Origin: a virus
Lineage: Duplodnaviria; Caudoviricetes
Strand: one strand, 5' to 3'
DNA length: 64,000 nucleotides
IMG/VR virus record: IMGVR_UViG_3300030104_006170
Of the stretch, positions 2 through 48,986 are shown piece after piece (positions within the stretch are counted from its first letter, which is position 1; each line of letters starts with the position of its first letter). The notes under the pieces were generated by a model, which saw only the letters and a program-made list of their open reading frames with translations, searched no databases and was not told the origin of the DNA. The position numbers and the translations under genes were made by a program.

Positions 2-3000
2 ATCTTCTTCCCAGTAAGTAGGTCCAGTAAAACCTGTTAGAGCAGCTGTGGTTATAGATTCTATTTCTCCTGTTGATTGTACTACTAGTATTTTGTCTGA
101 TGCTGTTGCAGTTGCTGTATCTACACTACCTAAGAATGTTCTACCTGATACCCCTAAATTACCCCCAAATCTTGCATCTGTAACACCAGATAATACACCA
201 TTTATATTTGTATTACCACTAACACCTAAACTATCGGTTAGTATGGTAGAACCTGAAACATGGAGTCTTGCTCTTATAGTTTCAGTAGCAGTACCAATTC
301 CAACATTACCAGTACCCATAACTGTTATTTTCTCATCTGCTGTGGTATACCCCCCCAACGTGAACCCCATACGTGTAGCATCATTACCATAAGAGTTCCC
401 AAAAATACTACGTTGTTGACCTGCGTTACTGTGTCCTATACCAGTTCTACCCGCGATTCTTACTTGTAGTGCATCCGCTCCCGATAGACCACCATCTACA
501 TCAATAGCTACTGTTGGGTTAATAGTACCTACCCCGAACATTTGGTTTGCAGCAAAATTAACTATTGTATCCCCGTCTTTATTTTTTAAATTTAACCCAT
601 AAAATGAACCACTAGATTCTGACTCAAATGTATAGTCTTGATGTGGGTTTGAGTTGGAGTGAAATTTTAAGAAGTGTCCATTATCTTCTCTATCTATTGT
701 TAGTGGATAACCTGTACCGGTACCACCACTTAATAAAATATTTGTACTTCCAGATGGAGATATACTAAGACTATCTGTATTGGATGACCAGTAATTTTCA
801 GTAAACCCAGTAAGTTGTGCTTTGGTAATAGATTCTATTTCACCAGTTGATTGTACTACAAGTATCTTGTCTGTACTTGTAGGTGTAGGTGAAGCTGCAT
901 CTACAGTACCTAAGAAGGTTCTTCCAGATATTCCTAATGTACTTGCTATATGTTGAGTGTTGGCAGATACTATATTACTATATGTTACCCCAGTAACTCC
1001 TAGATTAGTTTTGATAGAAGTTTCACCACTTATTTTTACATCACCATTAACATCTAATTTTACTGTAGGTGTTTCTGTTCCTATACCAACTCTATGAGTA
1101 GAAGCATCAGTAAATAATATAGTACTAGAACCACCTTTAATGGTTAAATCTACATCATTATTACCATTATTGAATATAATATCATGTGGAGCAGAAGAAG
1201 CGTCATTTAAATCTAGATATGATATGCCACCAATATTAAATAAAAGTCTATCATCATAAAATTCAAGATAAGTATTAGGGTCACCATTATGTTTAATGTA
1301 TTGACTAACATATAAATTTCCATTTATAGTGGTATCACCGCTCACCCCTAATTGACCCGTCACATCAACATTAACAGTACCACCTGATGGTTTTATTCCG
1401 GTTCCACTACCATTTCCTATCCAGTAATCTGAGGTAAATGCTGTAAGAGCACCTGTGGTTATACTTTCAATTTCTCCTGTTGATTGTACAACTAAGATTT
1501 TGTCTGATGCTGTTGCCGTTGCTGTATCTACACTTCCTAAGAATGTTTTACCTGATACACCTAATGTACTTGCTATATGTTGAGTGTTGGCAGATACTAT
1601 ATTACTGTAGGTTACTCCGGTAACACCTAAGTTACCTTGATTAAGTGTGCTGCCTGATACATTAATACCGGTAGATGTAGTTTCAAGTTTTTGAGCGTCA
1701 TCATAATAAAAAGCCTGTTCACTACCGGAGTTGAAGATTGCCGATGTTTTACTTCCTGCAGCATTTAAGATTGTAAAGGTACCGGACCTAACTTGTACAT
1801 GTCCTGTGCCATTATCTTGTATTATAGAATTACTTCCGTCATGATAGATTTGTAGGTCATTAGCGTCACCTAACATTAGTTTAGCATCATCCACTAATAT
1901 CGTATTACCACTAATGTTTAGAGTTTGTGCTGTAAGTCCACCGTTTAATTTTATATCCGTATTTGTTGTACCCCCTGAAGGAGTTATGCTGGTTCCGTCA
2001 GTATTACCAGTCCAATAATCGTTATCACCAATATCTGCTTTTAATTCAGCTGTAGTTAGATATTCTATTTCACCGTCACCTTGAGCTACAAGTATTTTAT
2101 CTGCCGAATAACTCCCTCCTGCTGCATCTATAGTTCCGAGATAAGTCTTACCAGACACACCCAACTCATTTTTAACTAGGGTATTACCTGACACGTTAAT
2201 TCCACTTGATGTTGTTTCAAATTTCTTTGTACCGGAATAATATAAGGAAACGGCACCCGAAGCTACTCCTCTAAAAAGATAACTGGTAGCACTACCATCC
2301 GTAAAATCTAATGTATTACCTTCAACCTGTAATGTACTACTCCCAACCGCTATCCTTCCACCACTACTATTAGCATAAACCTCTAAATCATTGTCAGCAC
2401 CTAACATTATTTTATCATTATCACCTAAACTGGTATTACCACTAATACTTAAGGTTTGTGCTGTTAGACCCCCATTTAATTTTATATCTGTATTTGTTGT
2501 ACCACCGGAAGGTGTTATACTAGTACCATCTGTATTACCAGTCCAATAATCAGCATCTGCAATATCTGCTTTTAATTCAGCTGTAGTTAGATATTCTATT
2601 TCACCATCACCCTGTGCTACCAATATTTTATCTGCGGAGTAACTACCTCCTGCTGCATCTATTGTACCTAGATAGGTCCTACCTGACACCCCTAATTCAT
2701 TCTTGATTAACGTATTTCCTGAAACATTAACACCAGCTGATGTAGTTTCAAACTTTTTAACATTATCGTAGTAAATTTCAACTGCTCCATCGGCAATACC
2801 CTTCACCATAAGTTCTGTACTACTATCCTTAGAAATTATAACATTATTGTCACTTTGTAGGTATAGGCTTCCGGTTCCTGTTTCTCTTACTATTGAGTGA
2901 CTTCCATTGTGAAATATCTTTAGGTCAGCATTATTACCAAATCCTGCATAGTTAGCACTAACACTACCATCACCCAGTAATATACTTCCACCAAAAGTTG

Positions 3001-4183
3001 AATTACCGGTTACTCCTAGTACACCTGTTACATCTACATTAGTTGTGGTACCTGACGGTTTTATTCCGGTACCTGAACCATTACCTACCCAATAGTCCGA
3101 TGTAAATGCTGTAAGAGCACCTGTGGTTATACTTTCAATTTCTCCGGTGGATTGTACAACTAAGATTTTGTCTGATGCTGTTGCCGTTGCTGTATCTACA
3201 CTACCTAAATAAGTTTTTCCAGATATTCCTAGTGTGTTTGCTATATGTTGTGTGTTTGCCGATACTACATTACTGTAAGTTATCCCACTAACTCCTAAGT
3301 TACCCTGATTAAGTGTACTACCTGATATATTAATACCGGTTGATGTTGTTTCTAATTTTTTATTACCGGCATGATATAAACTAACATTAAATGCTTCAGA
3401 ATCAGTTTTTAGAAGAATATCATTATTTCTATCCATAGCCCTGAAGTTAATTCTATTACTACCACCATTAATTGTAGCAGTAAAAGGAGCACTATTATCA
3501 TCATGAACCGCAAAGAATGTCATACCACCTGCATCAAGTGAAATCTTATTATCAGTAAAGCGGATTGCTGTGTTATCATCACCTTTATGTTTGATATATT
3601 CAGTAACGAATAAGTCTCCATTTATAATGGTGTCTCCAGTTACACCTAAAAGACCCGGTAGATTAACATTAGTTGTTGTATTTGAACCAGAAGTTGTGAT
3701 ACTAGTACCATCACTACTGCCTGACCAATAGGAGGCAAAATCATCAAAACCACTTACGGTAAAAGTACCTCCAGAAGAATTGGTAAATGTAACAACTCCA
3801 GTTGCTTGATTTAACGTACCTCCCGTAACAAAAGCGTCGTTAAATAATAGTGCACTATTTGTTACGGTAAATGTACCACCAGTACTATTTGTAAAATTAA
3901 GTGTAGAATTAGCTCCATTTGCCGTACCACCAGTCACATAAACACCCGTCCCACCTGAACTGGTACTACCACTAGAACCCCCAGAAAGACAGTTATTATA
4001 AAGTTGGGTTACGTAATCGGAAAATACTTTATCTTTTGGGCAGGAATTGTTATAATATTCTGTAAGACTATTAACAAAATCGTCATAGGTTTGTGAGGGG
4101 ACCGTATAACAACATAATGGTTCCCATACATCACCGTAGTAATTAAGTATAGTTCCGTAATCTAATGTAAGACATTCTGACAT
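2..4183 (-). CDS. Long tail fibre/adhesin-like virion protein built from repeated modules; runs off the left window edge (>1390 aa)
   Basis: ATG at 4183 (MSECLTLDYGTILNYYG...) with TATTTAT upstream. Manual reading found no in-frame stop to the window edge. Gly/Thr/Ser-rich, with six LG(S/T)(V/I)D...DKILV(V/A)Q(S/G)(T/D)GEIE modules, KK(F/L)ETTS(T/S/A)G(I/V)N(I/V)SG motifs and (V/I)GIGT motifs typical of fibres. Absent from the ORF track because the stop lies outside the window. Confidence 0.85.
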   Translation of the reverse strand, partial: MSECLTLDYGTILNYYGDVWEPLCCYTVPSQTYDDFVNSLTEYYNNSCPKDKVFSDYVTQLYNNCLSGGSSGSTSSGGTGVYVTGGTANGANSTLNFTNSTGGTFTVTNSALLFNDAFVTGGTLNQATGVVTFTNSSGGTFTVSGFDDFASYWSGSSDGTSITTSGSNTTTNVNLPGLLGVTGDTIINGDLFVTEYIKHKGDDNTAIRFTDNKISLDAGGMTFFAVHDDNSAPFTATINGGSNRINFRAMDRNNDILLKTDSEAFNVSLYHAGNKKLETTSTGINISGSTLNQGNLGVSGITYSNVVSANTQHIANTLGISGKTYLGSVDTATATASDKILVVQSTGEIESITTGALTAFTSDYWVGNGSGTGIKPSGTTTNVDVTGVLGVTGNSTFGGSILLGDGSVSANYAGFGNNADLKIFHNGSHSIVRETGTGSLYLQSDNNVIISKDSSTELMVKGIADGAVEIYYDNVKKFETTSAGVNVSGNTLIKNELGVSGRTYLGTIDAAGGSYSADKILVAQGDGEIEYLTTAELKADIADADYWTGNTDGTSITPSGGTTNTDIKLNGGLTAQTLSISGNTSLGDNDKIMLGADNDLEVYANSSGGRIAVGSSTLQVEGNTLDFTDGSATSYLFRGVASGAVSLYYSGTKKFETTSSGINVSGNTLVKNELGVSGKTYLGTIDAAGGSYSADKILVAQGDGEIEYLTTAELKADIGDNDYWTGNTDGTSITPSGGTTNTDIKLNGGLTAQTLNISGNTILVDDAKLMLGDANDLQIYHDGSNSIIQDNGTGHVQVRSGTFTILNAAGSKTSAIFNSGSEQAFYYDDAQKLETTSTGINVSGSTLNQGNLGVTGVTYSNIVSANTQHIASTLGVSGKTFLGSVDTATATASDKILVVQSTGEIESITTGALTAFTSDYWIGNGSGTGIKPSGGTVNVDVTGQLGVSGDTTINGNLYVSQYIKHNGDPNTYLEFYDDRLLFNIGGISYLDLNDASSAPHDIIFNNGNNDVDLTIKGGSSTILFTDASTHRVGIGTETPTVKLDVNGDVKISGETSIKTNLGVTGVTYSNIVSANTQHIASTLGISGRTFLGTVDAASPTPTSTDKILVVQSTGEIESITKAQLTGFTENYWSSNTDSLSISPSGSTNILLSGGTGTGYPLTIDREDNGHFLKFHSNSNPHQDYTFESESSGSFYGLNLKNKDGDTIVNFAANQMFGVGTINPTVAIDVDGGLSGADALQVRIAGRTGIGHSNAGQQRSIFGNSYGNDATRMGFTLGGYTTADEKITVMGTGNVGIGTATETIRARLHVSGSTILTDSLGVSGNTNINGVLSGVTDARFGGNLGVSGRTFLGSVDTATATASDKILVVQSTGEIESITTAALTGFTGPTYWEED
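55..3340 (-). repeat. Imperfect direct repeats inside the fibre gene (six module copies; two near-identical pairs)
   Basis: Module cores at about 55-135, 825-920, 1465-1550, 2060-2160, 2600-2690 and 3135-3230. Blocks ~1400-1690 and ~3060-3355, and ~1920-2230 and ~2460-2760, are close to identical at the DNA level. Confidence 0.9.
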
Positions 4184-4303
4184 AATTTAAATTTCTTCTA
4201 TACATAAATATCTATTAGTTGTATATTTATTAATAAAGTAAAAAGCTTGAATATTCACTTTATCTTTTAAAAAAAGGATTATATAATTAATAAAAACAAA
4301 ACA

Positions 4304-4528
4304 ATGTTATTAAACAAAGACTTACCTCACAATTTAACAACAGAACGTATAGAGATTACTTTCTGTGGGAAAGGAAAATGCAAATGTCCATCAATAGATA
4401 TGGACCTAAACCGTGATAAAATTATTATTGGCGGAGAAGATGAAGGTTATACAGAATTTACTAAGGAAGAGTTTGGACTTTTCGTTAATGAAATTAAAGC
4501 TGGTACTTTCGATAAATACATGAAATAA
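4304..4528 (+). CDS. Hypothetical protein (DUF397-like size; CxGxxxCxCP motif)
   Basis: 74-aa ORF after an AT-rich promoter region ending in TATAAT. Confidence 0.6.
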   Translation: MLLNKDLPHNLTTERIEITFCGKGKCKCPSIDMDLNRDKIIIGGEDEGYTEFTKEEFGLFVNEIKAGTFDKYMK

Positions 4529-4529
4529 A

Positions 4530-4730
4530 ATGGGATGTGGATGTAAAAAGAAAAAATCTCAAGCTGCTGCAGCTCAAACTGCACAAGCTAGGACTATGAA
4601 TCAGCCTGTAAATCCAGGTGAAGCAAATGTTAACGCAGTACAAGAAAATAAAGAATATCAAGGTAAAGTAAGAGACGCTCTTAAACAACTTATGGATATA
4701 AAGAGACGTAAACGAACACCTAAAAGATAA
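4530..4730 (+). CDS. Small basic protein with N-terminal MGCGCKKK motif
   Basis: ORF track; abuts the upstream gene and is followed by a terminator hairpin. Confidence 0.65.
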   Translation: MGCGCKKKKSQAAAAQTAQARTMNQPVNPGEANVNAVQENKEYQGKVRDALKQLMDIKRRKRTPKR

Positions 4731-4750
4731 TAAGTTAAAATAATCAAGAG

Positions 4751-4781
4751 AATAAAGGCACTTAGTAGTGCCTTTATTTTT
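4751..4781. terminator. Intrinsic terminator, probably bidirectional
   Basis: AATAAAGGCAC-TTAGTA-GTGCCTTTATT followed by a T run. Confidence 0.85.
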
Positions 4782-4802
4782 GCCAAATATTTATATAGTG
4801 TA

Positions 4803-5921
4803 ATGAAATTATTTAACAATTTACATAATATTATTTTAGAACAAACTACTCCTTGGTATGTTAAAGTTTTCGAGAGTGAGGACTTTGAATCACTATGGCC
4901 AATAACAAAAATGTTTGGTGGTGATTTATATGAAATTTATAAGGCTTTGGAAAAGATGGGTAAAGGGGAAGATTTTATTAGACATATAAGTTATAACTGG
5001 CCTTGGGATGAACAACCTATGGCCCACGTTATTGACGCTTTAGGGGGTATGAGTAGATGGAGACGGGGAATGTTAGATAATGATTTACTAGACATATACG
5101 TCCATCAACCTTATATAGAGGAAATTTCAAATCTTAGTTATGATAAAGACCGAATTATATTAGAATTATTAGGTGGTGAGGAACACAGGTTATTTGGTGG
5201 TTCAAATTATAATGGTGATGATTGTAGGTATGTTGCTGAACAAATATTCAGTGAAGAAGGTTTGGATTGGGAACCTTATGACGTAGATGAGAAATTAGAG
5301 GATTTAATAGAGATGTTATCATCAGAAAATTATACAGAGTTAGTTCGTCATATAGGAATAGAGTTTCAAAATCAAGAAGTTGATGCGTGGAGAGAAGAGT
5401 TTGATGGAGTTAGAGAGGATAATGGTAAAGTTATTGTAACCCCTCGTTTTATGAATGGTTTTCTTCCGGACAATGAAAGTAAGAGATACAATTTAGCTGT
5501 TCTTATTGGTAATACTCCTGAGTTAGCTGATTTAGAAATTGCGATAAGACATGCTTATAGTAGAGCGTATAATGATGTTATTATCAATCAGTATTATGAG
5601 GAGTATAATGATGCTCTTGAAGAGTTATTGGGTCCATCGATAAAACAAGGTTACACTCCGGTTTATAAGTGGGTTAAAAATCCTGAAACAGGACAAAGAG
5701 AACAGAAAAAACGTGAAGTTTCCTTTAAGTCCTTTGATGTAACTGATTTGGCTAGAACTGTAATAACTAGACATGCACATGATGTAGATAGTCCTGAGGA
5801 TTTTCTGAATCTTCTGGATGAGTATGATTATAATCGTCTTTGTCCTAGTGTAGATGACTACCCTTATGATGAAGAAGAAGTAAAAAATAACTTCCAAGAG
5901 TTCTTGTGGGACTATTTATAA
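4803..5921 (+). CDS. Highly acidic protein with an N-terminal ..IILEQ leader; candidate internal head protein
   Basis: 372 aa, D/E-rich; MKLFNNLHNIILEQ leader; TATTTAT at 4788-4794. Confidence 0.7.
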   Translation: MKLFNNLHNIILEQTTPWYVKVFESEDFESLWPITKMFGGDLYEIYKALEKMGKGEDFIRHISYNWPWDEQPMAHVIDALGGMSRWRRGMLDNDLLDIYVHQPYIEEISNLSYDKDRIILELLGGEEHRLFGGSNYNGDDCRYVAEQIFSEEGLDWEPYDVDEKLEDLIEMLSSENYTELVRHIGIEFQNQEVDAWREEFDGVREDNGKVIVTPRFMNGFLPDNESKRYNLAVLIGNTPELADLEIAIRHAYSRAYNDVIINQYYEEYNDALEELLGPSIKQGYTPVYKWVKNPETGQREQKKREVSFKSFDVTDLARTVITRHAHDVDSPEDFLNLLDEYDYNRLCPSVDDYPYDEEEVKNNFQEFLWDYL

Positions 5922-20593: not shown

Positions 20594-20634
20594 CAAATAT
20601 ATAAAAAAAAACCGAAAGTTTTAAGTTTCGGTTT
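20594..20634 (-). terminator. Terminator of the T9SS-cargo operon, abutting the TATATTTG promoter of uvsE
   Basis: Minus strand AAACCGAAA-N8-TTTCGGTTT plus T run, then TATATTTG at 20594-20601. Confidence 0.8.
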
Positions 20635-20657: not shown

Positions 20658-21449
20658 TTATCTAGTAATATATAATTTTTGATTTCTAATGTATAGTTTA
20701 CCTACTGGAATTTCAGTTAATTCTCTACCTAGTAAGTCATAAATTTTACCATCATTAATTCTATTAAATGTTAGTTCATTTATTGAAGTTGGTGTCATAT
20801 TAAGTAATACCCATGAAAAACTATTTTGGTCAAATACTAACCACTCTTCTACACTACATACTTCTACTGAACCGTTCTCATAAATATATATATCATAACC
20901 AACTTTTACTGTGTCTGATGTTGTGATTTGTGGAAAATAATCATACAGACCTGAACCTGTATAACAAGTACCACCTCCTGTATATCCAGTACACACACCC
21001 CAATATACTGTCATAGAGTCAGGATTATGAACCATACCTGATGTGTCAAGTCCTATATTAAATCCTTGACTTTGGTCTATCCAATATGTTATTGAGTCAC
21101 AGCAAAAATATGGTTGTTGCATACTCATCTTTAACCACATATTTGCATCCCATATCCAATTTACACAACATGTAGTAGTCGCTCCCATACCATAAGTAAT
21201 ACAAGTTGTCAGTGTATCATAGTTAAATTGGAAGTTATAGACCATATGATATGTACTCATACTATCTTCTTGGAATATCACTCCGTCATTTGATGTTGTT
21301 ACCCAATAATCAATAAAGGTGTTGACTCCAACAACCTCAAAAATAGGTTGATTCTGGGGTCCATTAACAATCATTGAATCACAATAATTTATTTGTGCTT
21401 GTGTTTGTAGTCCAAACATAACTAATAGTGCTAATAAAATTCTTTTCAT
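20658..21449 (-). CDS. Secreted Cys-rich protein with a short T9SS type A-like C-terminal domain
   Basis: Sec signal ending AQ; two related Cys-containing repeats; C-terminal PTSINE..KIYDLLGRE..KLYI. Confidence 0.7.
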   Translation of the reverse strand: MKRILLALLVMFGLQTQAQINYCDSMIVNGPQNQPIFEVVGVNTFIDYWVTTSNDGVIFQEDSMSTYHMVYNFQFNYDTLTTCITYGMGATTTCCVNWIWDANMWLKMSMQQPYFCCDSITYWIDQSQGFNIGLDTSGMVHNPDSMTVYWGVCTGYTGGGTCYTGSGLYDYFPQITTSDTVKVGYDIYIYENGSVEVCSVEEWLVFDQNSFSWVLLNMTPTSINELTFNRINDGKIYDLLGRELTEIPVGKLYIRNQKLYITR

Positions 21450-21516
21450 TTTTTAATTTTTAATTTAATTATTATTTCATATAATAAATACGAAATATAA
21501 ACTTAATTGTCTAGTA

Positions 21517-22047
21517 CTATCTTACTAGTGTAACGTGACCTGTGTAATGTTGGTTGTGTGTCCTAATTGAGTATGTGTAGACCCCTACCTGACAATTCTT
21601 TCCATCCCATGGAATGTTATCGGTTGTTTGATATATAATTTCACCCCATCTATTGTATATAACCATTAGCTCTATATCGTCTTTATCAGCACCGTGAACA
21701 TAAAATGTTTCATTGTAATCGTCCTGGTTTGGTGTGAATGAGTTAGGTACAAATATTTGTAAGTATGGACAATCTTCTACTATTACCTCATGATAAGAAG
21801 TGTCACCATCACATCCAAATCTAGTTGTATAAACAGATATGATATATGTACCTACTGAATCTGGCCACTGTACAGTAATAGAATTATTATTATTGTATAG
21901 TATTTCTCCACCTATTATATCCCAATAATATACCTTATCCGCATCATAACTTACTTGATAATTTTGTGGTGTTATTCCCTCACAATTAGTGTAAGTTTCT
22001 TGAGCAAATAATTGAAGTGGTAGTAGTATATATACTAACCATCTCAT
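21517..22047 (-). CDS. PKD-like plus T9SS type B (gliding motility-associated/CHU_C) C-terminal domain protein
   Basis: Signal ending FAQ; IFVPNSFTPNQDDYNETF..IYNRWGEIIY..WDG..GVYTY..GHVTLVR. Confidence 0.9.
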   Translation of the reverse strand: MRWLVYILLPLQLFAQETYTNCEGITPQNYQVSYDADKVYYWDIIGGEILYNNNNSITVQWPDSVGTYIISVYTTRFGCDGDTSYHEVIVEDCPYLQIFVPNSFTPNQDDYNETFYVHGADKDDIELMVIYNRWGEIIYQTTDNIPWDGKNCQVGVYTYSIRTHNQHYTGHVTLVR

Positions 22048-22048
22048 A

Positions 22049-22588
22049 TTAGTAATGTTGAATTGGTCCTGTAACTGGTCCGTTATTAACTACCACATTT
22101 ATTGTTGTATTACAACCAGCCATAGAATAAGTTAATACGTAATTCCCCACCCCTGTTGATGGTTGGAATGAATTTGCTACTACACCTGTTCCAGACCAAG
22201 TACCTCCTGCAGGTGTTCCTACTAATGGAGTTGTGGGGTCTCCTGGACAGAATGGTCCAATTGCATTCCCATTTAAATCTAGTACAAATACATCTAATAA
22301 TACGGGTGTTCCAGGACAGTTGGCTGCATTGGTTTCAATAACTTCAACAGCGTTTGTAAAAAGTCCACTAACACCTCCCCAATCTACTGTGATTGAATTG
22401 GTTCCTTGTCCTGTTTGTAAAACACCACCACCACCTGTGATAGTCCAGTTATAAGTTGATGTAGGGGTATTAGTAACAAAATACTGTTCACCTACTGCGT
22501 TTGCACATACTGTGTCTGGGTTGATTGTTGTTTGACCGTAAGTCGTTAATCCTATGAGGATTAATAAAACTGTTAAAATTCTTTTCAT
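22049..22588 (-). CDS. Secreted PKD/Ig-like protein ending in PVTGPIQHY
   Basis: Signal ending YGQ; STYNWTITGGG..GQGTNSITVDW; PAGGTWSGTGV. Confidence 0.75.
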   Translation of the reverse strand: MKRILTVLLILIGLTTYGQTTINPDTVCANAVGEQYFVTNTPTSTYNWTITGGGGVLQTGQGTNSITVDWGGVSGLFTNAVEVIETNAANCPGTPVLLDVFVLDLNGNAIGPFCPGDPTTPLVGTPAGGTWSGTGVVANSFQPSTGVGNYVLTYSMAGCNTTINVVVNNGPVTGPIQHY

Positions 22589-22599
22589 AATTTATTTTT

Positions 22600-23160
22600 T
22601 TAATAATGATTTATGTTCGATGTAATGGGTATCACTACTTGAACGGTTCCGTTGTATATTTGATATGCTGGGTCGTTACAACAATTTCCGTTAGCCCAAC
22701 CTCCTGTTGTACAATCATCGAAAACCTCTATACTAATACTTAAATCTTCGTTTGTACATGTTTGTCCAACTGTTATTTGAAAACTGGTGATAAATGGACC
22801 GTTAGAACTGGTTCCCCATCCTGCTGTACCTGCATTTTCAAATCTCCATCCTGGTCCAAAGTTAAACCCTCCGGGGTATGTATGTTGTAAATCCCACAAC
22901 CAATTACCTGTTGAGCCTAATGGATTACCTGGAGCTTGTGTTGGTGTTAGGTTCACCCACCCAATTCCTAGATTGATTTGGATGGCATGTATCCAGTTTA
23001 TATTTATCCCGGTAAAATCTTGTAGTGTATACCACACTGTCACAGTTTGTCCTGGAGAATAAGGACCAGCTGGAGATATAACATGTGACTGATTAATTAC
23101 ACATTGTGAATAGGATGTAAACGACAACACCATTAGTAATATTGTTAATAACTTTCTCAT
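22600..23160 (-). CDS. Secreted beta-rich protein ending in PITSNINHY
   Basis: Signal ending YSQ; resembles N-terminal domains of flavobacterial surface proteins; TATTTAT upstream. Confidence 0.7.
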   Translation of the reverse strand: MRKLLTILLMVLSFTSYSQCVINQSHVISPAGPYSPGQTVTVWYTLQDFTGININWIHAIQINLGIGWVNLTPTQAPGNPLGSTGNWLWDLQHTYPGGFNFGPGWRFENAGTAGWGTSSNGPFITSFQITVGQTCTNEDLSISIEVFDDCTTGGWANGNCCNDPAYQIYNGTVQVVIPITSNINHY

Positions 23161-23188
23161 ATATAATAAATATAGAAAAAATTCCCAT

Positions 23189-23224
23189 AAAAGAAAAATC
23201 CCCGTATGGTTAAATACGAGGATT
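23189..23224 (-). terminator. Intrinsic terminator after the structured-RNA region
   Basis: AATCCTCGTAT-TTAACC-ATACGGGGATT (11 bp with one G-U) plus T-rich tail. Confidence 0.85.
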
Positions 23225-23225
23225 C

Positions 23226-23438
23226 TCAGGAAGAGGTTTCAATTTAATTTTAGTAATTGTAAAGATTGCAGTAATCTTCCTTTCATATAAAAATCACCCT
23301 GGGGTGAAGAATTTTAATCTTTTGGGTAGTCAGAATCATTTTTTATCCCTAGTTTATTTTATCGTCAAGGTGGGGAATAATGTCCACCTCTCTCTCTTTG
23401 TTAGTTTAATTTGCCGAAGAGATTCTTTGGTCTACCCA
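23226..23438 (-). ncRNA. Tandem structured RNA units downstream of the Ro/TROVE-like gene (Y-RNA-like candidate)
   Basis: Unit 1 at 23323-23438: TGGGTAG/CTACCCA and AGAATC/GATTCT helices with a CGGCAA box. Unit 2 at 23226-23281: AGGAAGA/TCTTCCT helix with a CTGCAA box. Both 3' strands are followed by GA. Confidence 0.6.
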
Positions 23439-25852: not shown

Positions 25853-27271
25853 TTACTGTATCGAAGCTTCTGCTTCTTCAGCAGTCTTGTAATCACCTTG
25901 TTTATCAACGTAATTAACTACTACTTTTTGTCCATTTTGACATTCTCCAACTCCAAAGGACTGGTCGGGTTGAGTTTTAATTAATACTAATTCACCACAA
26001 GCTGCCTTTTCCATAATTTTGTGTGGTATAATCATTTTACTATTATTTTTAACATTTAGTACTTCTAGGTTTGGTAGGTTAACTATTGATTCTGGAATAT
26101 GTACTAAATTAGGATTGTTAGGGATAGATATAAATTGTAAGTTTTTTAACTCCCCTACCTCATCTGGTAACTCACTTAACATACCTTCGATGTGTAACAT
26201 TTCTAAATTTTTAAATCTTGTGATATCATCGGGTAATCTAAAAGCTGGTGTTTTTTGGTCTTTTTGACCGTATCCTCTACTATTTGATATCTCAATATCT
26301 AATCTTTCTAAAGTTTCTGGTAAAGCTTCAAAAAACTCATCGAACCCATAAATAGAAATATATTTAGATGCTGTATCATTAGGATATCTTAGTTGTACTT
26401 GTTTACCATAATCTTTACCCATAAACGTTGCAAACTTTTCTTTAAAGAATGGTTTAAGTTCTGGATATGTAGCAAAAAACGAACCTAAATCAATACTTCT
26501 ATCCTCTGCATTATAAAATGAATTACTTTCAAAGTGGAACTGATGACTTCTATTTTCAGCTGGGGCTTTACCAGCGTCTTCTTTATACATCATCATATAT
26601 AATGGACCTTGTTTGGAGTAGTGGTCATAGTAATTAGAAGTTTTTGATGCTGTACACCACCTAGTTTGTCCACCCCCGTAATGACAAGAAGCTTCTTTAG
26701 ATTTAGGTACTAAGATTAACCATTTATCATCTTCATAAACTTTATCAACATCATCTCTTAATCTTTCTGCTTTAGTCTTAGTTATCTCATCCTTACTGAC
26801 TTGGTAGTCTTTTACATTGTCATATAAGTCCTCTACGGATTTTATTTGTCCTATATCTTTTTGTCCTTTATATTTTTTTGTTTTCTTTAGGTAATGGAAT
26901 TTTTCTAAGTCCTCACTAACCTTATAAAGGTCTTCCATAAATAATTCTTGTAGTCTCTCCAACGTTTGGGTCCATTCTGGTGTCCCATAGTCATGTTCTG
27001 CGTCTGCCTTTTGTTGTAAACCTAACCATTGTTTAATTAACCAGTTAGTATAAGCTCCAACTTTTTCAACCTCTCTAGTATCTTCATCAGCTGTGTTTGT
27101 ACCTTCAATTTTAGATGTGGGGTCTGCCAACATTAAGGATTTTAGAAGCTCTTTTTCCATTTGAGCTTTCTTACCTTTCTTTTTTGGTTGGGTATACTTT
27201 TTCATAAGAACATCGTAACGACTGTCCTCAATAATTAAATTAGTTAAGATTTCCTTAAAGTTAAAGGCCAT
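25853..27271 (-). CDS. Protein with an ..IIED leader, a central SCHYG..RWCT domain and C-terminal leucine-rich repeats
   Basis: LPDDITRFKNLEMLHI, LPDEVGELKNLQFISI, IPESIVNLPNLEVLNVKNN. Confidence 0.75.
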   Translation of the reverse strand: MAFNFKEILTNLIIEDSRYDVLMKKYTQPKKKGKKAQMEKELLKSLMLADPTSKIEGTNTADEDTREVEKVGAYTNWLIKQWLGLQQKADAEHDYGTPEWTQTLERLQELFMEDLYKVSEDLEKFHYLKKTKKYKGQKDIGQIKSVEDLYDNVKDYQVSKDEITKTKAERLRDDVDKVYEDDKWLILVPKSKEASCHYGGGQTRWCTASKTSNYYDHYSKQGPLYMMMYKEDAGKAPAENRSHQFHFESNSFYNAEDRSIDLGSFFATYPELKPFFKEKFATFMGKDYGKQVQLRYPNDTASKYISIYGFDEFFEALPETLERLDIEISNSRGYGQKDQKTPAFRLPDDITRFKNLEMLHIEGMLSELPDEVGELKNLQFISIPNNPNLVHIPESIVNLPNLEVLNVKNNSKMIIPHKIMEKAACGELVLIKTQPDQSFGVGECQNGQKVVVNYVDKQGDYKTAEEAEASIQ

Positions 27272-45866: not shown

Positions 45867-46241
45867 CTACTTAACGTTGGATACGACCCAAGAAGCAGTA
45901 ACAATTGTTGCAGCACCTAAAAAGAAGTGAACTACAGGTTTATTATACCATTTAGGTTGTAATTCTTTTGTCAAATCTATATATAAATCTATTCTTTGAT
46001 TTAAGAGGTTTGTTTTCTCACCCATAAAAGCTATATGTAAACTATCTTGGGTGTGTAATGTTTTGTAATTTACTAGTTGTGTTTTAAGTAACTTAATTTC
46101 TAATTTCTGTAAACTATCGGTTTGTTCATAAACCTGGAATAAGGAGTCCATTTCAATTACTTCTTTTTCTGTAAAAGTGTGGGTTTGTGATAGTGCCCAT
46201 ACTGGAGTAAACAATAGTAGTATTATTATTAGTTTTTTCAT
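45867..46241 (-). CDS. Exported coiled-coil protein with a C-terminal hydrophobic helix (spanin-like)
   Basis: Signal ending LSQ; no lipobox Cys. Confidence 0.5.
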   Translation of the reverse strand: MKKLIIILLLFTPVWALSQTHTFTEKEVIEMDSLFQVYEQTDSLQKLEIKLLKTQLVNYKTLHTQDSLHIAFMGEKTNLLNQRIDLYIDLTKELQPKWYNKPVVHFFLGAATIVTASWVVSNVK

Positions 46242-47090: not shown

Positions 47091-47641
47091 AATATTTCAA
47101 AATTAAATGATGGGTTTATGTCTGTCCAATATTCATTATAATTACTTCTAGATACTATACCTTTAAAATTTTCTATACCATCAACTAAAACGTTGTGACC
47201 TATAAATTCATTAGGTATATTTTTATTTTTACATATTTTATCTATTAGTTTTTTAGTTGTTTCTATTTGTTTATCAGTATATTTATCCCAAAATAGTTTA
47301 TTTCTCCATTTTTTAGAGAATGTTTTACTACTATAAATATCCCCCAACCAATCAACATACTTACCGTCAGTACTTCTTCTTTTTAACCAACCCCTATTTT
47401 CTAAACACACTACAATAACACCCTGGTTTCTATAACCAAATAGATAGTGTTTAGAGACATCTTTGTCCGTTGGTGTATGAATTTCACCTTTTTTATCTAT
47501 TATATAATTTGGTATTTTTTCGTATTTGCCGTTATTTCTAAATTTTAGTCCCTTTAAGTAATTTTTAATGTCTCTATTAGTATTACATAACAGTATTTGA
47601 TTTATTTTATCTTCCCTTATATCTAAGTGTTTTGTTGTCAT
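47087..47641 (-). CDS. N-acetylmuramoyl-L-alanine amidase-like protein with degenerate Zn ligands
   Basis: NYIIDKKGEIH, VCLENRG, WTDINP; LLCNT and SRSN occur where HHT and THxN are expected. Confidence 0.6.
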   Translation of the reverse strand: MTTKHLDIREDKINQILLCNTNRDIKNYLKGLKFRNNGKYEKIPNYIIDKKGEIHTPTDKDVSKHYLFGYRNQGVIVVCLENRGWLKRRSTDGKYVDWLGDIYSSKTFSKKWRNKLFWDKYTDKQIETTKKLIDKICKNKNIPNEFIGHNVLVDGIENFKGIVSRSNYNEYWTDINPSFNFEIL

Positions 47642-48986
47642 CTTCCTGTTCTTTTTTACTAATATTAAGTGCTTCTGCTAATTTTTCAAGTTCTTTTTCA
47701 GTAGGATTTATTGGTTTTACTTCTTCAATTATTTCATTTTTACCTACTTCTTTACTTAAAGCTATTAGTTCTTCTTCTTCTAAATCATCATTACTTTTAA
47801 TAACCCTCACATCTTTTTTACTGTCTACTATTAAAGTTTGTGTGGTGTCTGTTAATCTATCTAATGAGATATCTGTCTCGTCGTAATGTAAACCATCATT
47901 ACCATTTTGACCTATGATATTCATTCTTTGTTCATCTATATCCATCTGTTTTTCTTCTGATGTATAATTTAGATAATTTTCTAAGTCTTCAAAGTATTGG
48001 TCATCTATAACTTCCTGTTCAAATAGTTCTTCCTCTTTAGTTTCATCTTTTTTATCTTGTCTTGCAAAAGCTTCTGACACTTCTTCCATGGTATATGGTG
48101 TGTCAAATTCTAAACCGTCTGGTTTTGACATTTTTACATCTTTAGGGTCAATCCCACTGGTTTGGACTATGAATTCTTCTTTTTTTGGTTTTATTTGTGC
48201 AAATGCGAAATTCGCTGCTACAACTAATGCGATTGCTAGTGGGTCAAATACAAATATAATTAATAATAAAAACCAATTAACTACCTCATTCATTGGTTTA
48301 CCGGTAGTTTCCGCTAAGTATTTTAAAGGCCCTAATTCTCTTTCAGCTTCGTTACTAACTTCTTTATCTAACAATAATACATCAGTTGAATTTATAGAAT
48401 CAAGAACAGCTTCTAATTTTATGTTAATCCCATCTCTATCTTTTATTGTGTTTTCTAATTCTTTTTGTAAAGCTCGTCTTGTAGAACTAGAAGTTGTTGT
48501 AATTACCTGTTCAGCCTCTTTATCATAATACGATACTGAACTTGGGTTTGATAAGGATATTCTTAGTTCTGAGATTGATTGGTTTAATTGTGTTTTTTCG
48601 AGTGTTAAATCCGTTTTTTGTTCTTCAAACCTAATTTGTTTTTGGTTTATTATTGCTAATGATTTATCTAACAGCTCAGATTTAGTAGCTGTCTCTTGAT
48701 ATGCTCCGGATAGAAATCCATATATACCACCACTCGTAATTAAGATAAGTATAAAACAGGCTAATGAAAGATATATTTTTAAAGCTCTGTTAATTGTGTC
48801 CCAGTATTGATATAGGAGTGAAGCTACTACAAGTTTTGCGAATTCTAGTGAACCTGCCATTATTATTACTTGGGTGGAAGCTCCGGCGAATAGTTTACTT
48901 AATCCAAACACTGAATAGAAGGCTGCTGAACCAGATACTGCCAATGCAGATAACGCAATTAATAACGGAAAAAGTCTTTTTTTCAT
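47607..48986 (-). CDS. Multi-TM membrane protein with a periplasmic coiled coil and an acidic tail
   Basis: SAAFYSVFGL, ELGPLKYL and IFVFDPLAI motifs; four TM helices. Confidence 0.7.
   Translation of the reverse strand: MKKRLFPLLIALSALAVSGSAAFYSVFGLSKLFAGASTQVIIMAGSLEFAKLVVASLLYQYWDTINRALKIYLSLACFILILITSGGIYGFLSGAYQETATKSELLDKSLAIINQKQIRFEEQKTDLTLEKTQLNQSISELRISLSNPSSVSYYDKEAEQVITTTSSSTRRALQKELENTIKDRDGINIKLEAVLDSINSTDVLLLDKEVSNEAERELGPLKYLAETTGKPMNEVVNWFLLLIIFVFDPLAIALVVAANFAFAQIKPKKEEFIVQTSGIDPKDVKMSKPDGLEFDTPYTMEEVSEAFARQDKKDETKEEELFEQEVIDDQYFEDLENYLNYTSEEKQMDIDEQRMNIIGQNGNDGLHYDETDISLDRLTDTTQTLIVDSKKDVRVIKSNDDLEEEELIALSKEVGKNEIIEEVKPINPTEKELEKLAEALNISKKEQEDDNKTLRYKGR

Follow-up and report, generated by a model that had tools for sequence, protein, structure and literature searches.

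A putative three-part, SprB-type surface adhesin with a type IX secretion signal in a lineage of marine jumbo phages

The genes considered here lie in a 64,000-nucleotide (nt) stretch of DNA, referred to as the window, from an uncultured marine jumbo phage (IMG/VR record IMGVR_UViG_3300030104_006170), and encode four predicted exported proteins, one of which ends in a C-terminal domain (CTD) for Bacteroidota's type IX secretion system (T9SS). All four genes are on the minus strand and are named P1 (22600-23160, 186 amino acids (aa)), P2 (22049-22588, 179 aa), P3 (21517-22047, 176 aa) and P4 (20658-21449, 263 aa). In each, a signal peptide is followed by Gln. The rest of P1 is an adhesin- or pilin-like beta-sandwich 'head' and an unstructured C-terminal tail; that of P2 is a PKD_6 domain, another Ig-like domain and likewise a C-terminal tail; P3 combines a domain resembling PKD_6 with a type B T9SS CTD, and P4 joins two beta-sandwich domains to a short C-terminal module. 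P1 and P2 are 11 nt apart, the P2 stop and the P3 start are separated by a single nt (TAA-T-ATG), and a spacer of 67 nt precedes P4.

The signals around the genes, all on the minus strand, mark out the same arrangement. The 12-mer TATTTATTATAT has exactly two occurrences, one directly upstream of the P1 start (23161-23172) and the other, an exact copy, inside the P3-P4 spacer (21479-21490). Its core TATTTAT is found 17 times within the 60 nt before gene starts, at a distance of 9-27 nt from the start codon in most cases, as compared with 4.0 +/- 2.1 times in shuffled sequence, and because of this enrichment the motif is taken to be real. A terminator-like hairpin of 9 bp with a T-run (20609-20634) follows 24 nt past the P4 stop, and another terminator-like hairpin (23194-23227) ends the TROVE/Ro60-like gene upstream and delimits the cassette. 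An earlier note on this DNA had described a late motif and a terminator, of which the motif and the terminator as such hold up, with late timing as a conjecture, and had treated the four genes as one operon, which goes too far: P4 has its own upstream motif, and P4-like genes are sited elsewhere than the other three in a relative rated 93% complete. Judged by gene order in relatives, P1-P2-P3 (the trio) is a conserved unit and P4 a separate, mobile gene.

Signal peptides were read heuristically by a simple screen (basic n-region, hydrophobic core, then Gln) rather than with a dedicated predictor. Among the 151 open reading frames (ORFs) of at least 60 aa in the window, the pattern was limited to P1-P4, as the earlier note had seen for these four consecutive genes, and to one ORF of 124 aa (45867-46241, minus strand), which reads ..W-A-L-S then Q, has no Pfam match and is a candidate exported phage protein. 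A Gln at position +1 after the signal peptide is known as the 'Q-rule' of Bacteroidota (PMC5837995), and Q-rule proteins were previously noted in phages of Porphyromonas gingivalis (PMC10367356). Cleavage of P1 is predicted before Gln19, the P3 signal (M-R-W-L-V-Y-I-L-L-P-L-Q-L-F-A, then Q) is conserved across 120 homologues, and the Sec signal with its Gln is kept throughout the phage families, so that the locus is predicted to encode Sec-exported proteins.

P3 carries the T9SS signal. Its residues ~97-176 (21520-21759, minus strand) match PF13585 with 46.6 bits (cut-off 27; residues 99-173) and TIGR04131 with 44.6 bits (cut-off 35; residues 100-176), the latter match reaching the last residue of the protein. 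The motif set tested for type B CTDs was P-N-x-F-[ST]-P-N-x-D, [FY]-[ND]-R-W-G, W-[DN]-G, G-x-Y and G-x-[VI]-x-L-[IL]-[RK]; in P3 the columns P-N-x-F-T-P-N, N-R-W-G, W-D-G, G-x-Y and G-x-V-x-L-[IV]-R are conserved, and they are invariant or nearly so both in a 34-member alignment of the family and in an alignment with 28 other metagenomic type B CTDs. By these matches, which exceed the curated cut-offs and substantiate the clear type B CTD that had been read from the letters alone, P3 is a type B T9SS cargo as such cargo is defined by sequence.

The cognate PorP/SprF-like shuttle is usually encoded next to a type B cargo, although this is not obligatory (PMC12618676). In the window no PorP/SprF-like gene was found, as had been stated before, there being no further signal-peptide ORF of suitable size, and a search of the 93%-complete relative with PF11751 gave no match over the cut-off, with a sensitivity that is unverified since 14 control genomes gave none either. 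In Flavobacterium johnsoniae, three 'orphan' type B cargo proteins use one shuttle that is encoded elsewhere, Fjoh_1677 (PMC12618676), and PorP-like barrels anchor type B cargo, which stays stably bound to them (PMC9143113). Given that orphans can share a distant shuttle and that cargo remains on such barrels, a phage-borne orphan is mechanistically plausible if the host shuttle accepts it, and P3 would be such an orphan cargo, using a shuttle of the host.

P1 was without a match in Pfam, NCBIfam and PHROGs, as was P4. An AlphaFold2 (AF2) model shows P1 as a beta-sandwich (predicted local distance difference test (pLDDT) 84.7, predicted template modelling score (pTM) 0.77), and the head domain has five conserved Cys. 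The best structural neighbours found with VIA-align are Ig-like domains of Gram-positive adhesins and pilins, with Z scores of 8-9.6 that are middling and speak to the fold class only, and a Foldseek search against the PDB returned nothing at E <= 0.001. The family is well conserved, with a mean column identity of 70% and 50 invariant columns. Residues 21-88 of P2 match PKD_6 (PF19408; E 3e-7, 31 bits with the gathering score at 25), a family that is also recorded on the P2-like genes of relatives. Over 16 phage loci, the columns of P2 are on average 78% identical, and the P2 proteins are 69-85% identical. The earlier note had placed PKD/Ig-like domains in the remaining proteins; PKD_6 is found in P2, and P1 and P4 are modelled as beta-sandwiches.

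Several lines of comparison tie the three proteins together. P2 and P3 have N-domains that resemble PKD_6 and are homologous to one another. When 1.84 billion representatives were searched with a P1-family profile, 342 proteins matched, and in the more distant ones the P1-like domain opens a large protein, following its signal peptide; of eight long matches that were scanned, seven contain SprB repeats and six contain CHU_C, in the latter case at the end. A P1-like N-terminus and a P3-like C-terminus are combined in 60 of 150 among the matches listed, three of which also have a P2-like middle. The clearest of the three, protein P0392, a single chain of 522 aa, is colinear with the whole trio, being 37% identical to P1 over its residues 1-185, 35% to P2 over 199-332 and 34% to P3 over 359-522. 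Among the phage loci the order P2 then P3 is invariant and the two are coupled by stop and start, while P1 stands first in about half of them and the order is P2-P3-P1 in the rest. By homology and domain order, P1-P2-P3 is one adhesin split over three polypeptides. The three-gene split, the copying of a host operon and the C-terminal tail shared by two of the proteins, both described below, were absent from the earlier note.

Unsplit forms occur on other contigs too. The gene for the 522-aa single chain (L036:10001-11569) lies on an 89.6-kb contig directly downstream of an HNH endonuclease gene, with a ClpP-type (prohead-protease-like) gene three genes downstream and most other ORFs being orphans, so that the contig is probably viral and the fused form may itself be phage-borne. 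Three viral contigs of 13-53 kb (L026-L028) encode, at 2552-5014, an unsplit signal-peptide protein of 820 aa, the C-terminal part of which is P2-like and P3-like and ends in a type B CTD.

The split form has a counterpart in bacteria. The nearest relatives of P1 are unfused; one of them, P0560, is found on bacterial contigs of at least 0.65 Mb between guaA/bshC and lolA/ftsK, where the first gene encodes a P1-like head with Ig_7 (361 aa, 55% identical to phage P1), the second, at loci of this type, a PKD_6 protein (443-574 aa) and the third a PKD plus CHU_C protein (426 aa). GTDB species genomes were also scanned and yielded nine loci that carry a P1-like gene, all in metagenome-assembled genomes (MAGs) of Flavobacteriales/Bacteroidota, and the identity to P1 is 46-74%. 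A tailed P2-like gene followed by a P3-like gene is present at seven of the nine, and four of these seven have, immediately upstream of the pair, a P1-like gene that is tailed or truncated; of the other two loci, one encodes a fused single chain and the other breaks off just behind its P1-like gene. We use the term tripartite operon, which is defined here and is not a published family, for a gene row in which a head protein and a PKD_6 protein, both with the C-terminus P-I-x-[HFYV]-[NYF]-COOH, precede a PKD plus CHU_C protein. This arrangement is found at the bacterial loci L037-L039 and L042-L047, and also at the phage loci, where the proteins are consistently shorter (186, 179 and 176 aa for P1, P2 and P3, versus 200-471, 278-590 and 353-427 aa in the MAG operons). 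Directly upstream of the split-adhesin operon, six of the nine MAG loci have a signal-peptide gene with a LysM domain (433-458 aa; L038:6532-7866, with equivalents in L039, L040, L042, L043 and L046), which may be part of the host system and of which the phage window has no copy.

The tails at the ends of P1 (P-I-T-S-N-I-N-H-Y, 22603-22629) and P2 (P-V-T-G-P-I-Q-H-Y, 22052-22078), both on the minus strand, were recognised in alignments of homologues and of phage loci, respectively. In phage P1 the consensus is T-S-N-I-N-H-[YF]-COOH, with T180, I183 and H185 invariant in 41 aligned homologues, and phage P2 ends in G-P-x-T-G-P-I-Q-H-[YF], of which G-P-x-T-G-P-I-Q-H is invariant in 16 loci. Bacterial P1-like proteins end in ..PPINHN or ..LPIWHN and P2-like proteins in ..GPIFHN, ..GPIWHN or ..GPIIFN, so that both CTD-less pieces, in phages and in hosts, end in P-I-x-[HFYV]-[NYF]-COOH; four representatives among the closest share this tail. 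In fused proteins the corresponding positions are occupied by ordinary linkers, and the H-[NYF] end is missing. The tail is covered by no family model, and the P1 model has no predicted secondary structure after residue 169, that is, over its last 17 residues. Complex prediction for mature P1 and P3 with P2 as partner gave 0.66, and 0.65 was obtained in a control with P1 replaced, which speaks neither for nor against binding. From their position and conservation, we infer that the tails replace the covalent links of the single-chain proteins, each docking its piece on the PKD_6 domain of the next.

Taken together, we consider it probable, if only just, that P1-P2-P3 is a phage-borne, miniaturised version of a three-gene, SprB-type surface adhesin of Flavobacteriales, in which P3 is exported via the host T9SS and the tails join the pieces. 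P1 would be the distal head, P2 a PKD/Ig connector and P3 the PKD-containing piece with the type B CTD. Each piece would first be exported by Sec to the periplasm and cut before the Gln, which would become a pyroglutamate cap, after which P3 would pass through the host T9SS translocon and be held on the surface by a host PorP/SprF-like shuttle, as for other orphan type B cargo. The tails of CTD-less P1 and P2 (P-I-x-H-[YF]-COOH, where single-chain homologues have linkers) would dock P1 onto P2 and P2 onto P3, and export or assembly of the resulting complex would follow as one unit. As a net effect, the surface of the infected cell would bear a short form of a host adhesin that the phage specifies, and adhesion or receptor availability would be altered; coating or jamming of the surface, superinfection exclusion and adhesion are speculative as roles.

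Several points weigh against this explanation. We know of no precedent for the co-export, in the T9SS, of CTD-less partners together with a CTD-bearing subunit, and the conservation of the tails is equally compatible with a recognition site for a protease or sortase-like enzyme, or with binding to a host protein. A PorP/SprF gene is lacking next to the host operon, as it is at the phage locus. Species specificity is possible for CTDs (PMC11285876), those of type B require a cognate shuttle (PMC12618676), and the secretion of P3 would for these reasons depend on a PorP/SprF-like protein of the host. The host itself is likely a member of the Flavobacteriales, as judged from the T9SS signal, the Q-rule and the homology to MAG proteins.

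Among characterised systems, the closest to the trio are the adhesin-shuttle pairs of the SprB/SprF type in F. johnsoniae, to which P3 is alike in its Sec signal and its C-terminal CHU_C/TIGR04131 domain (PMC12618676, PMC9143113), and it resembles the F. johnsoniae orphan cargo of shuttle Fjoh_1677 in having no adjacent shuttle gene. With SprB-type proteins, homologues of the trio share PKD and SprB repeats, and the P1-like domain heads many of them. The adhesin described here differs from them in being phage-encoded, in being divided into three polypeptides, two of which have a P-I-x-H-[NYF] tail in place of a CTD, and in its total size of ~500 aa; SprB has a length of 6497 aa. The anchoring proposed for P3 is that of PG1035 in the PG1035-PorP-PorE system of P. 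gingivalis, where a small, uncleaved type B CTD protein sits on a barrel of the PorP family (PMC9143113), although PG1035 is a single chain and the search of the phage turned up neither a PorP nor a PorE homologue. Two further comparisons are functional analogies only. The phage trio might resemble pili in that its Ig-like subunits might join via a tail, with neither sequence kinship nor demonstrated structural kinship. In the type V pili of Bacteroidota and in chaperone-usher pili, separately exported subunits are joined by a donor strand or terminal segment, and type V pilins are protease-processed lipoproteins. Imm and Sp of phage T4 and Llp of phage T5, which serve superinfection exclusion or receptor masking at the envelope, are single small membrane proteins or lipoproteins and use no dedicated secretion system. 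They may be likened to the trio as exported phage proteins that alter the envelope, and they are unrelated to it in sequence.

The same proteins could act by obstruction, in that P3, with P1 and P2, would occupy the host shuttle or translocon and displace the long adhesins of the host, leading to removal of receptors, superinfection exclusion or an arrest of gliding. The phage versions are stripped to a minimum relative to the MAG operons and have retained the CTD and the tails; moreover, type B cargo binds its shuttle stably (PMC9143113), with shuttles being both specific and limiting (PMC12618676). As a plug alone, the trio would have no use for P1, however, the head of which is the best-conserved part of unknown kind (70% identity, 50 invariant columns), and we consider jamming of this sort unlikely.

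The presence of a signal peptide on each gene, the shifting position of P1 relative to P2-P3 and the clear independence of P4 would also fit a situation in which P1, P2 and P4 are independent soluble proteins that stay in the periplasm or are released, P3 is the sole T9SS cargo, the clustering reflects descent from a split gene and the tails are not assembly signals. P1, P2 and P3 are nevertheless adjacent in every complete locus of phage and host, and near-identical tails are found on two non-homologous domains and in the split forms only, which makes independent proteins a decidedly unlikely account.

The evidence for the phage origin of the locus bears on whether the genes are passengers, recently captured from a host and without a role in infection, or the product of a host-phage assembly chimera, a danger that the earlier note had itself raised. 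With a Flavobacteriales MAG protein, P1 shares up to 74% identity, as might be expected of such passengers. The genes on both sides are of phage type, however, and include those for an ATP-dependent DNA ligase, a UvdE-like endonuclease, TROVE/DUF2828, a 3'-5' exonuclease, an SbcC-like protein and a tail-fibre-like ORF, and in guanine-cytosine composition the cassette resembles its flanks. At least 17 contigs of viral or metagenomic origin, up to 298 kb long, contain the trio, one of them being the 93%-complete IMG/VR relative of 297.6 kb, and P1, P2 and P3 are together in every relative examined, amid varying phage genes (PPDK, ligase, thioredoxins, DUF2828). At 90% identity, P1 has 255 and P3 239 homologue clusters, from marine metagenomes and contigs of up to 262-298 kb, and their lengths are near-constant, at 186 aa in nearly all P1 and 176 aa in nearly all P3 clusters. 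DNA runs from many independent marine studies contain the stretch. With this number of constant-length clusters, a P2 that is 69-85% identical over 16 phage loci, genes that are consistently shortened relative to the host versions, and neither restriction to a single assembly nor decayed frames, the passenger or chimera explanation is largely refuted and very improbable. In gene content and recurrence, the locus is phage DNA and not a host-phage assembly chimera, and the trio is a stable feature of one cosmopolitan marine jumbo-phage lineage.

A role as decoration or fibre proteins of the virion, on which Ig- and PKD-like domains are common in many tailed phages and to which a related contig with a fusion of the N-terminus of a gp13 neck protein to the C-terminal half of P2 might hint, is highly improbable, as cleavable Q-rule Sec signals are conserved throughout the families whereas virions assemble in the cytoplasm. 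The fusion itself (L003:7108-8001, on the same contig as L025; an ORF of 297 aa with P2 residues 66-179) was set aside as a probable assembly chimera: its gp13 part is 65-71% identical to T4-like cyanophages of Synechococcus, for which reason the 13.9-kb IMG/VR contig is probably a chimera of cyanophage and the present lineage.

No cultured relative of the phage was identified, a blastn search against cultured phages giving a weak match for the TROVE gene alone, and a PHROGs search returned nothing for P1-P4. The nearest record (G001, a 19%-complete fragment) has no match to the cassette or to CHU_C, which on a fragment of this completeness is uninformative. Elsewhere in the window, a 472-aa protein (25853-27271, minus strand) has C-terminal leucine-rich repeats (LRR_14, E 2e-8) and the TATTTAT motif before its gene, and a 459-aa ORF (47607-48986, minus strand) has a hydrophobic N-terminus, no Pfam or PHROG match and a 57%-identical homologue in the related contig L004.

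P4 has a history of its own. Its family comprises 1082 homologue clusters, whose members have the signal peptide and the C-terminal 150 aa in common and differ in a swappable N-domain, and full-length homologues with 37-39% identity are found in Flavobacteriales MAGs. The C-terminal module of ~45 aa (20661-20804, minus strand; ..T-S-I-N-E.. I-Y-D-L-L-G-R-E.. G-x-L-Y-I-R-N-x-K-x-Y-I..) had been described as a short type A-like CTD, a label that the comparisons with models do not bear out. A type A CTD is a compact, seven-stranded Ig-like beta-sandwich of ~70-80 residues (PMC11285876). The AF2 model of P4, which is of moderate quality (pTM 0.38; residues 218-231 with pLDDT <50), has two beta-sandwich domains and a short C-terminal piece, in which ~30 C-terminal residues form short strands, which would be too few for seven as far as a model of this quality can show. 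None of 50 family members matches TIGR04183 or PF18962 even at E <= 10, the 60-aa tail on its own has no type A match, and neither alone nor within bacterial carrier proteins does it match a Pfam or NCBIfam family. Alignment by hhalign to the genuine type A CTD of a related phage gave a probability of 0.4% with 9 columns aligned. Type A cargo is thus not supported for P4, which fails every model-based test. Two leads from the ESM Atlas for the P4 tail, Por_Secre_tail and DUF6383, scored 0.77-0.82, under the level at which they would be counted, and DUF6383 in two carrier genomes turned out to be ordinary CTD-like domains of ~75 aa, which are not the P4 tail.

The module is nonetheless widespread. 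It was found at no fewer than 98 loci, and the matching genomes, which include Flavobacteriales, Crocinitomicaceae, Prevotella, Muribaculaceae and other Bacteroidota, are all either Bacteroidota by name or compatible with them. Among the bacterial ORFs, 44 were inspected, and in these it lies 0-9 residues from the stop; its carriers are signal-peptide proteins that include GH43, GH32, GH5 and a C10 peptidase, and the P4-tail profile matches the C-terminus of PDB 4kca, an arabinanase from a rumen metagenome, with E 2.3e-5. From this distribution, the P4 tail is a real, unnamed module that behaves like a sorting tag, and P4 itself would be an independent secreted beta-sandwich protein with a sorting-tag-like module and no recognisable type A CTD. 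As the tail is on many glycoside hydrolases and peptidases of Prevotella and Flavobacteriales, it flags a gap in the annotation of CTDs. Genuine type A CTD proteins are encoded by related phages (L034:1-1335 in G004, and L035, at ~39.4 kb of record G002; PF18962, 54 and 45 bits), where these CTDs sit on Cys-rich repeat proteins and differ from the P4 tail; the gene in G004 is ~2 kb upstream of the trio.

A wider interpretation, possible but rather doubtful, would take in both kinds of tail: P-I-x-[HFYV]-[NYF]-COOH would be an unrecognised, T9SS-linked signal that docks CTD-less subunits on PKD_6 domains for co-export or assembly with a single type B CTD subunit into multi-subunit surface fibres of marine Flavobacteriales, captured and minimised by a global jumbo-phage lineage to re-dress infected cells, and the P4 tail would represent a third, short class of C-terminal sorting tag in Bacteroidota that is missed by the type A and B models.

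T9SS cargo in phages has been proposed before from in silico evidence, for 'Cryophage', with type A CTDs (Bellas et al. 2020, PMC7468147), and for crAss-like contigs, in which ORFs with T9SS sorting domains were found (PMC6949934), hence the statement that no such cargo was known to have been characterised in phages was overstated. As in the present case, these are phages of Bacteroidota hosts with a function derived from sequence, but their cargo consists of type A CTDs on enzymes or BACON proteins, in contrast to the type B CTD on a split host-operon adhesin that is kept lineage-wide here. In the literature searched, no type B cargo in phages, split three-gene adhesin, C-terminal tail of the kind on P1 and P2 or short tag like that of P4 was found. 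Type B CTDs are common in viral contigs, with at least 508 confirmed stretches in IMG/VR in the survey of phage contigs that had been suggested at the outset, and they also occur in two huge uncultured phages of 635-642 kb.

Models of the T9SS assume that each cargo has its own CTD, and one CTD serving three polypeptides would be a new mode of assembly or co-export, for which the phage trio, with ~500 residues in total, would provide a compact test system. As type B CTD genes are common in viral contigs and the trio is stable in its lineage, T9SS-based remodelling of the surface of infected Flavobacteriales may be widespread, with possible effects in the ocean on the attachment to particles, on gliding and on the adsorption of phages.

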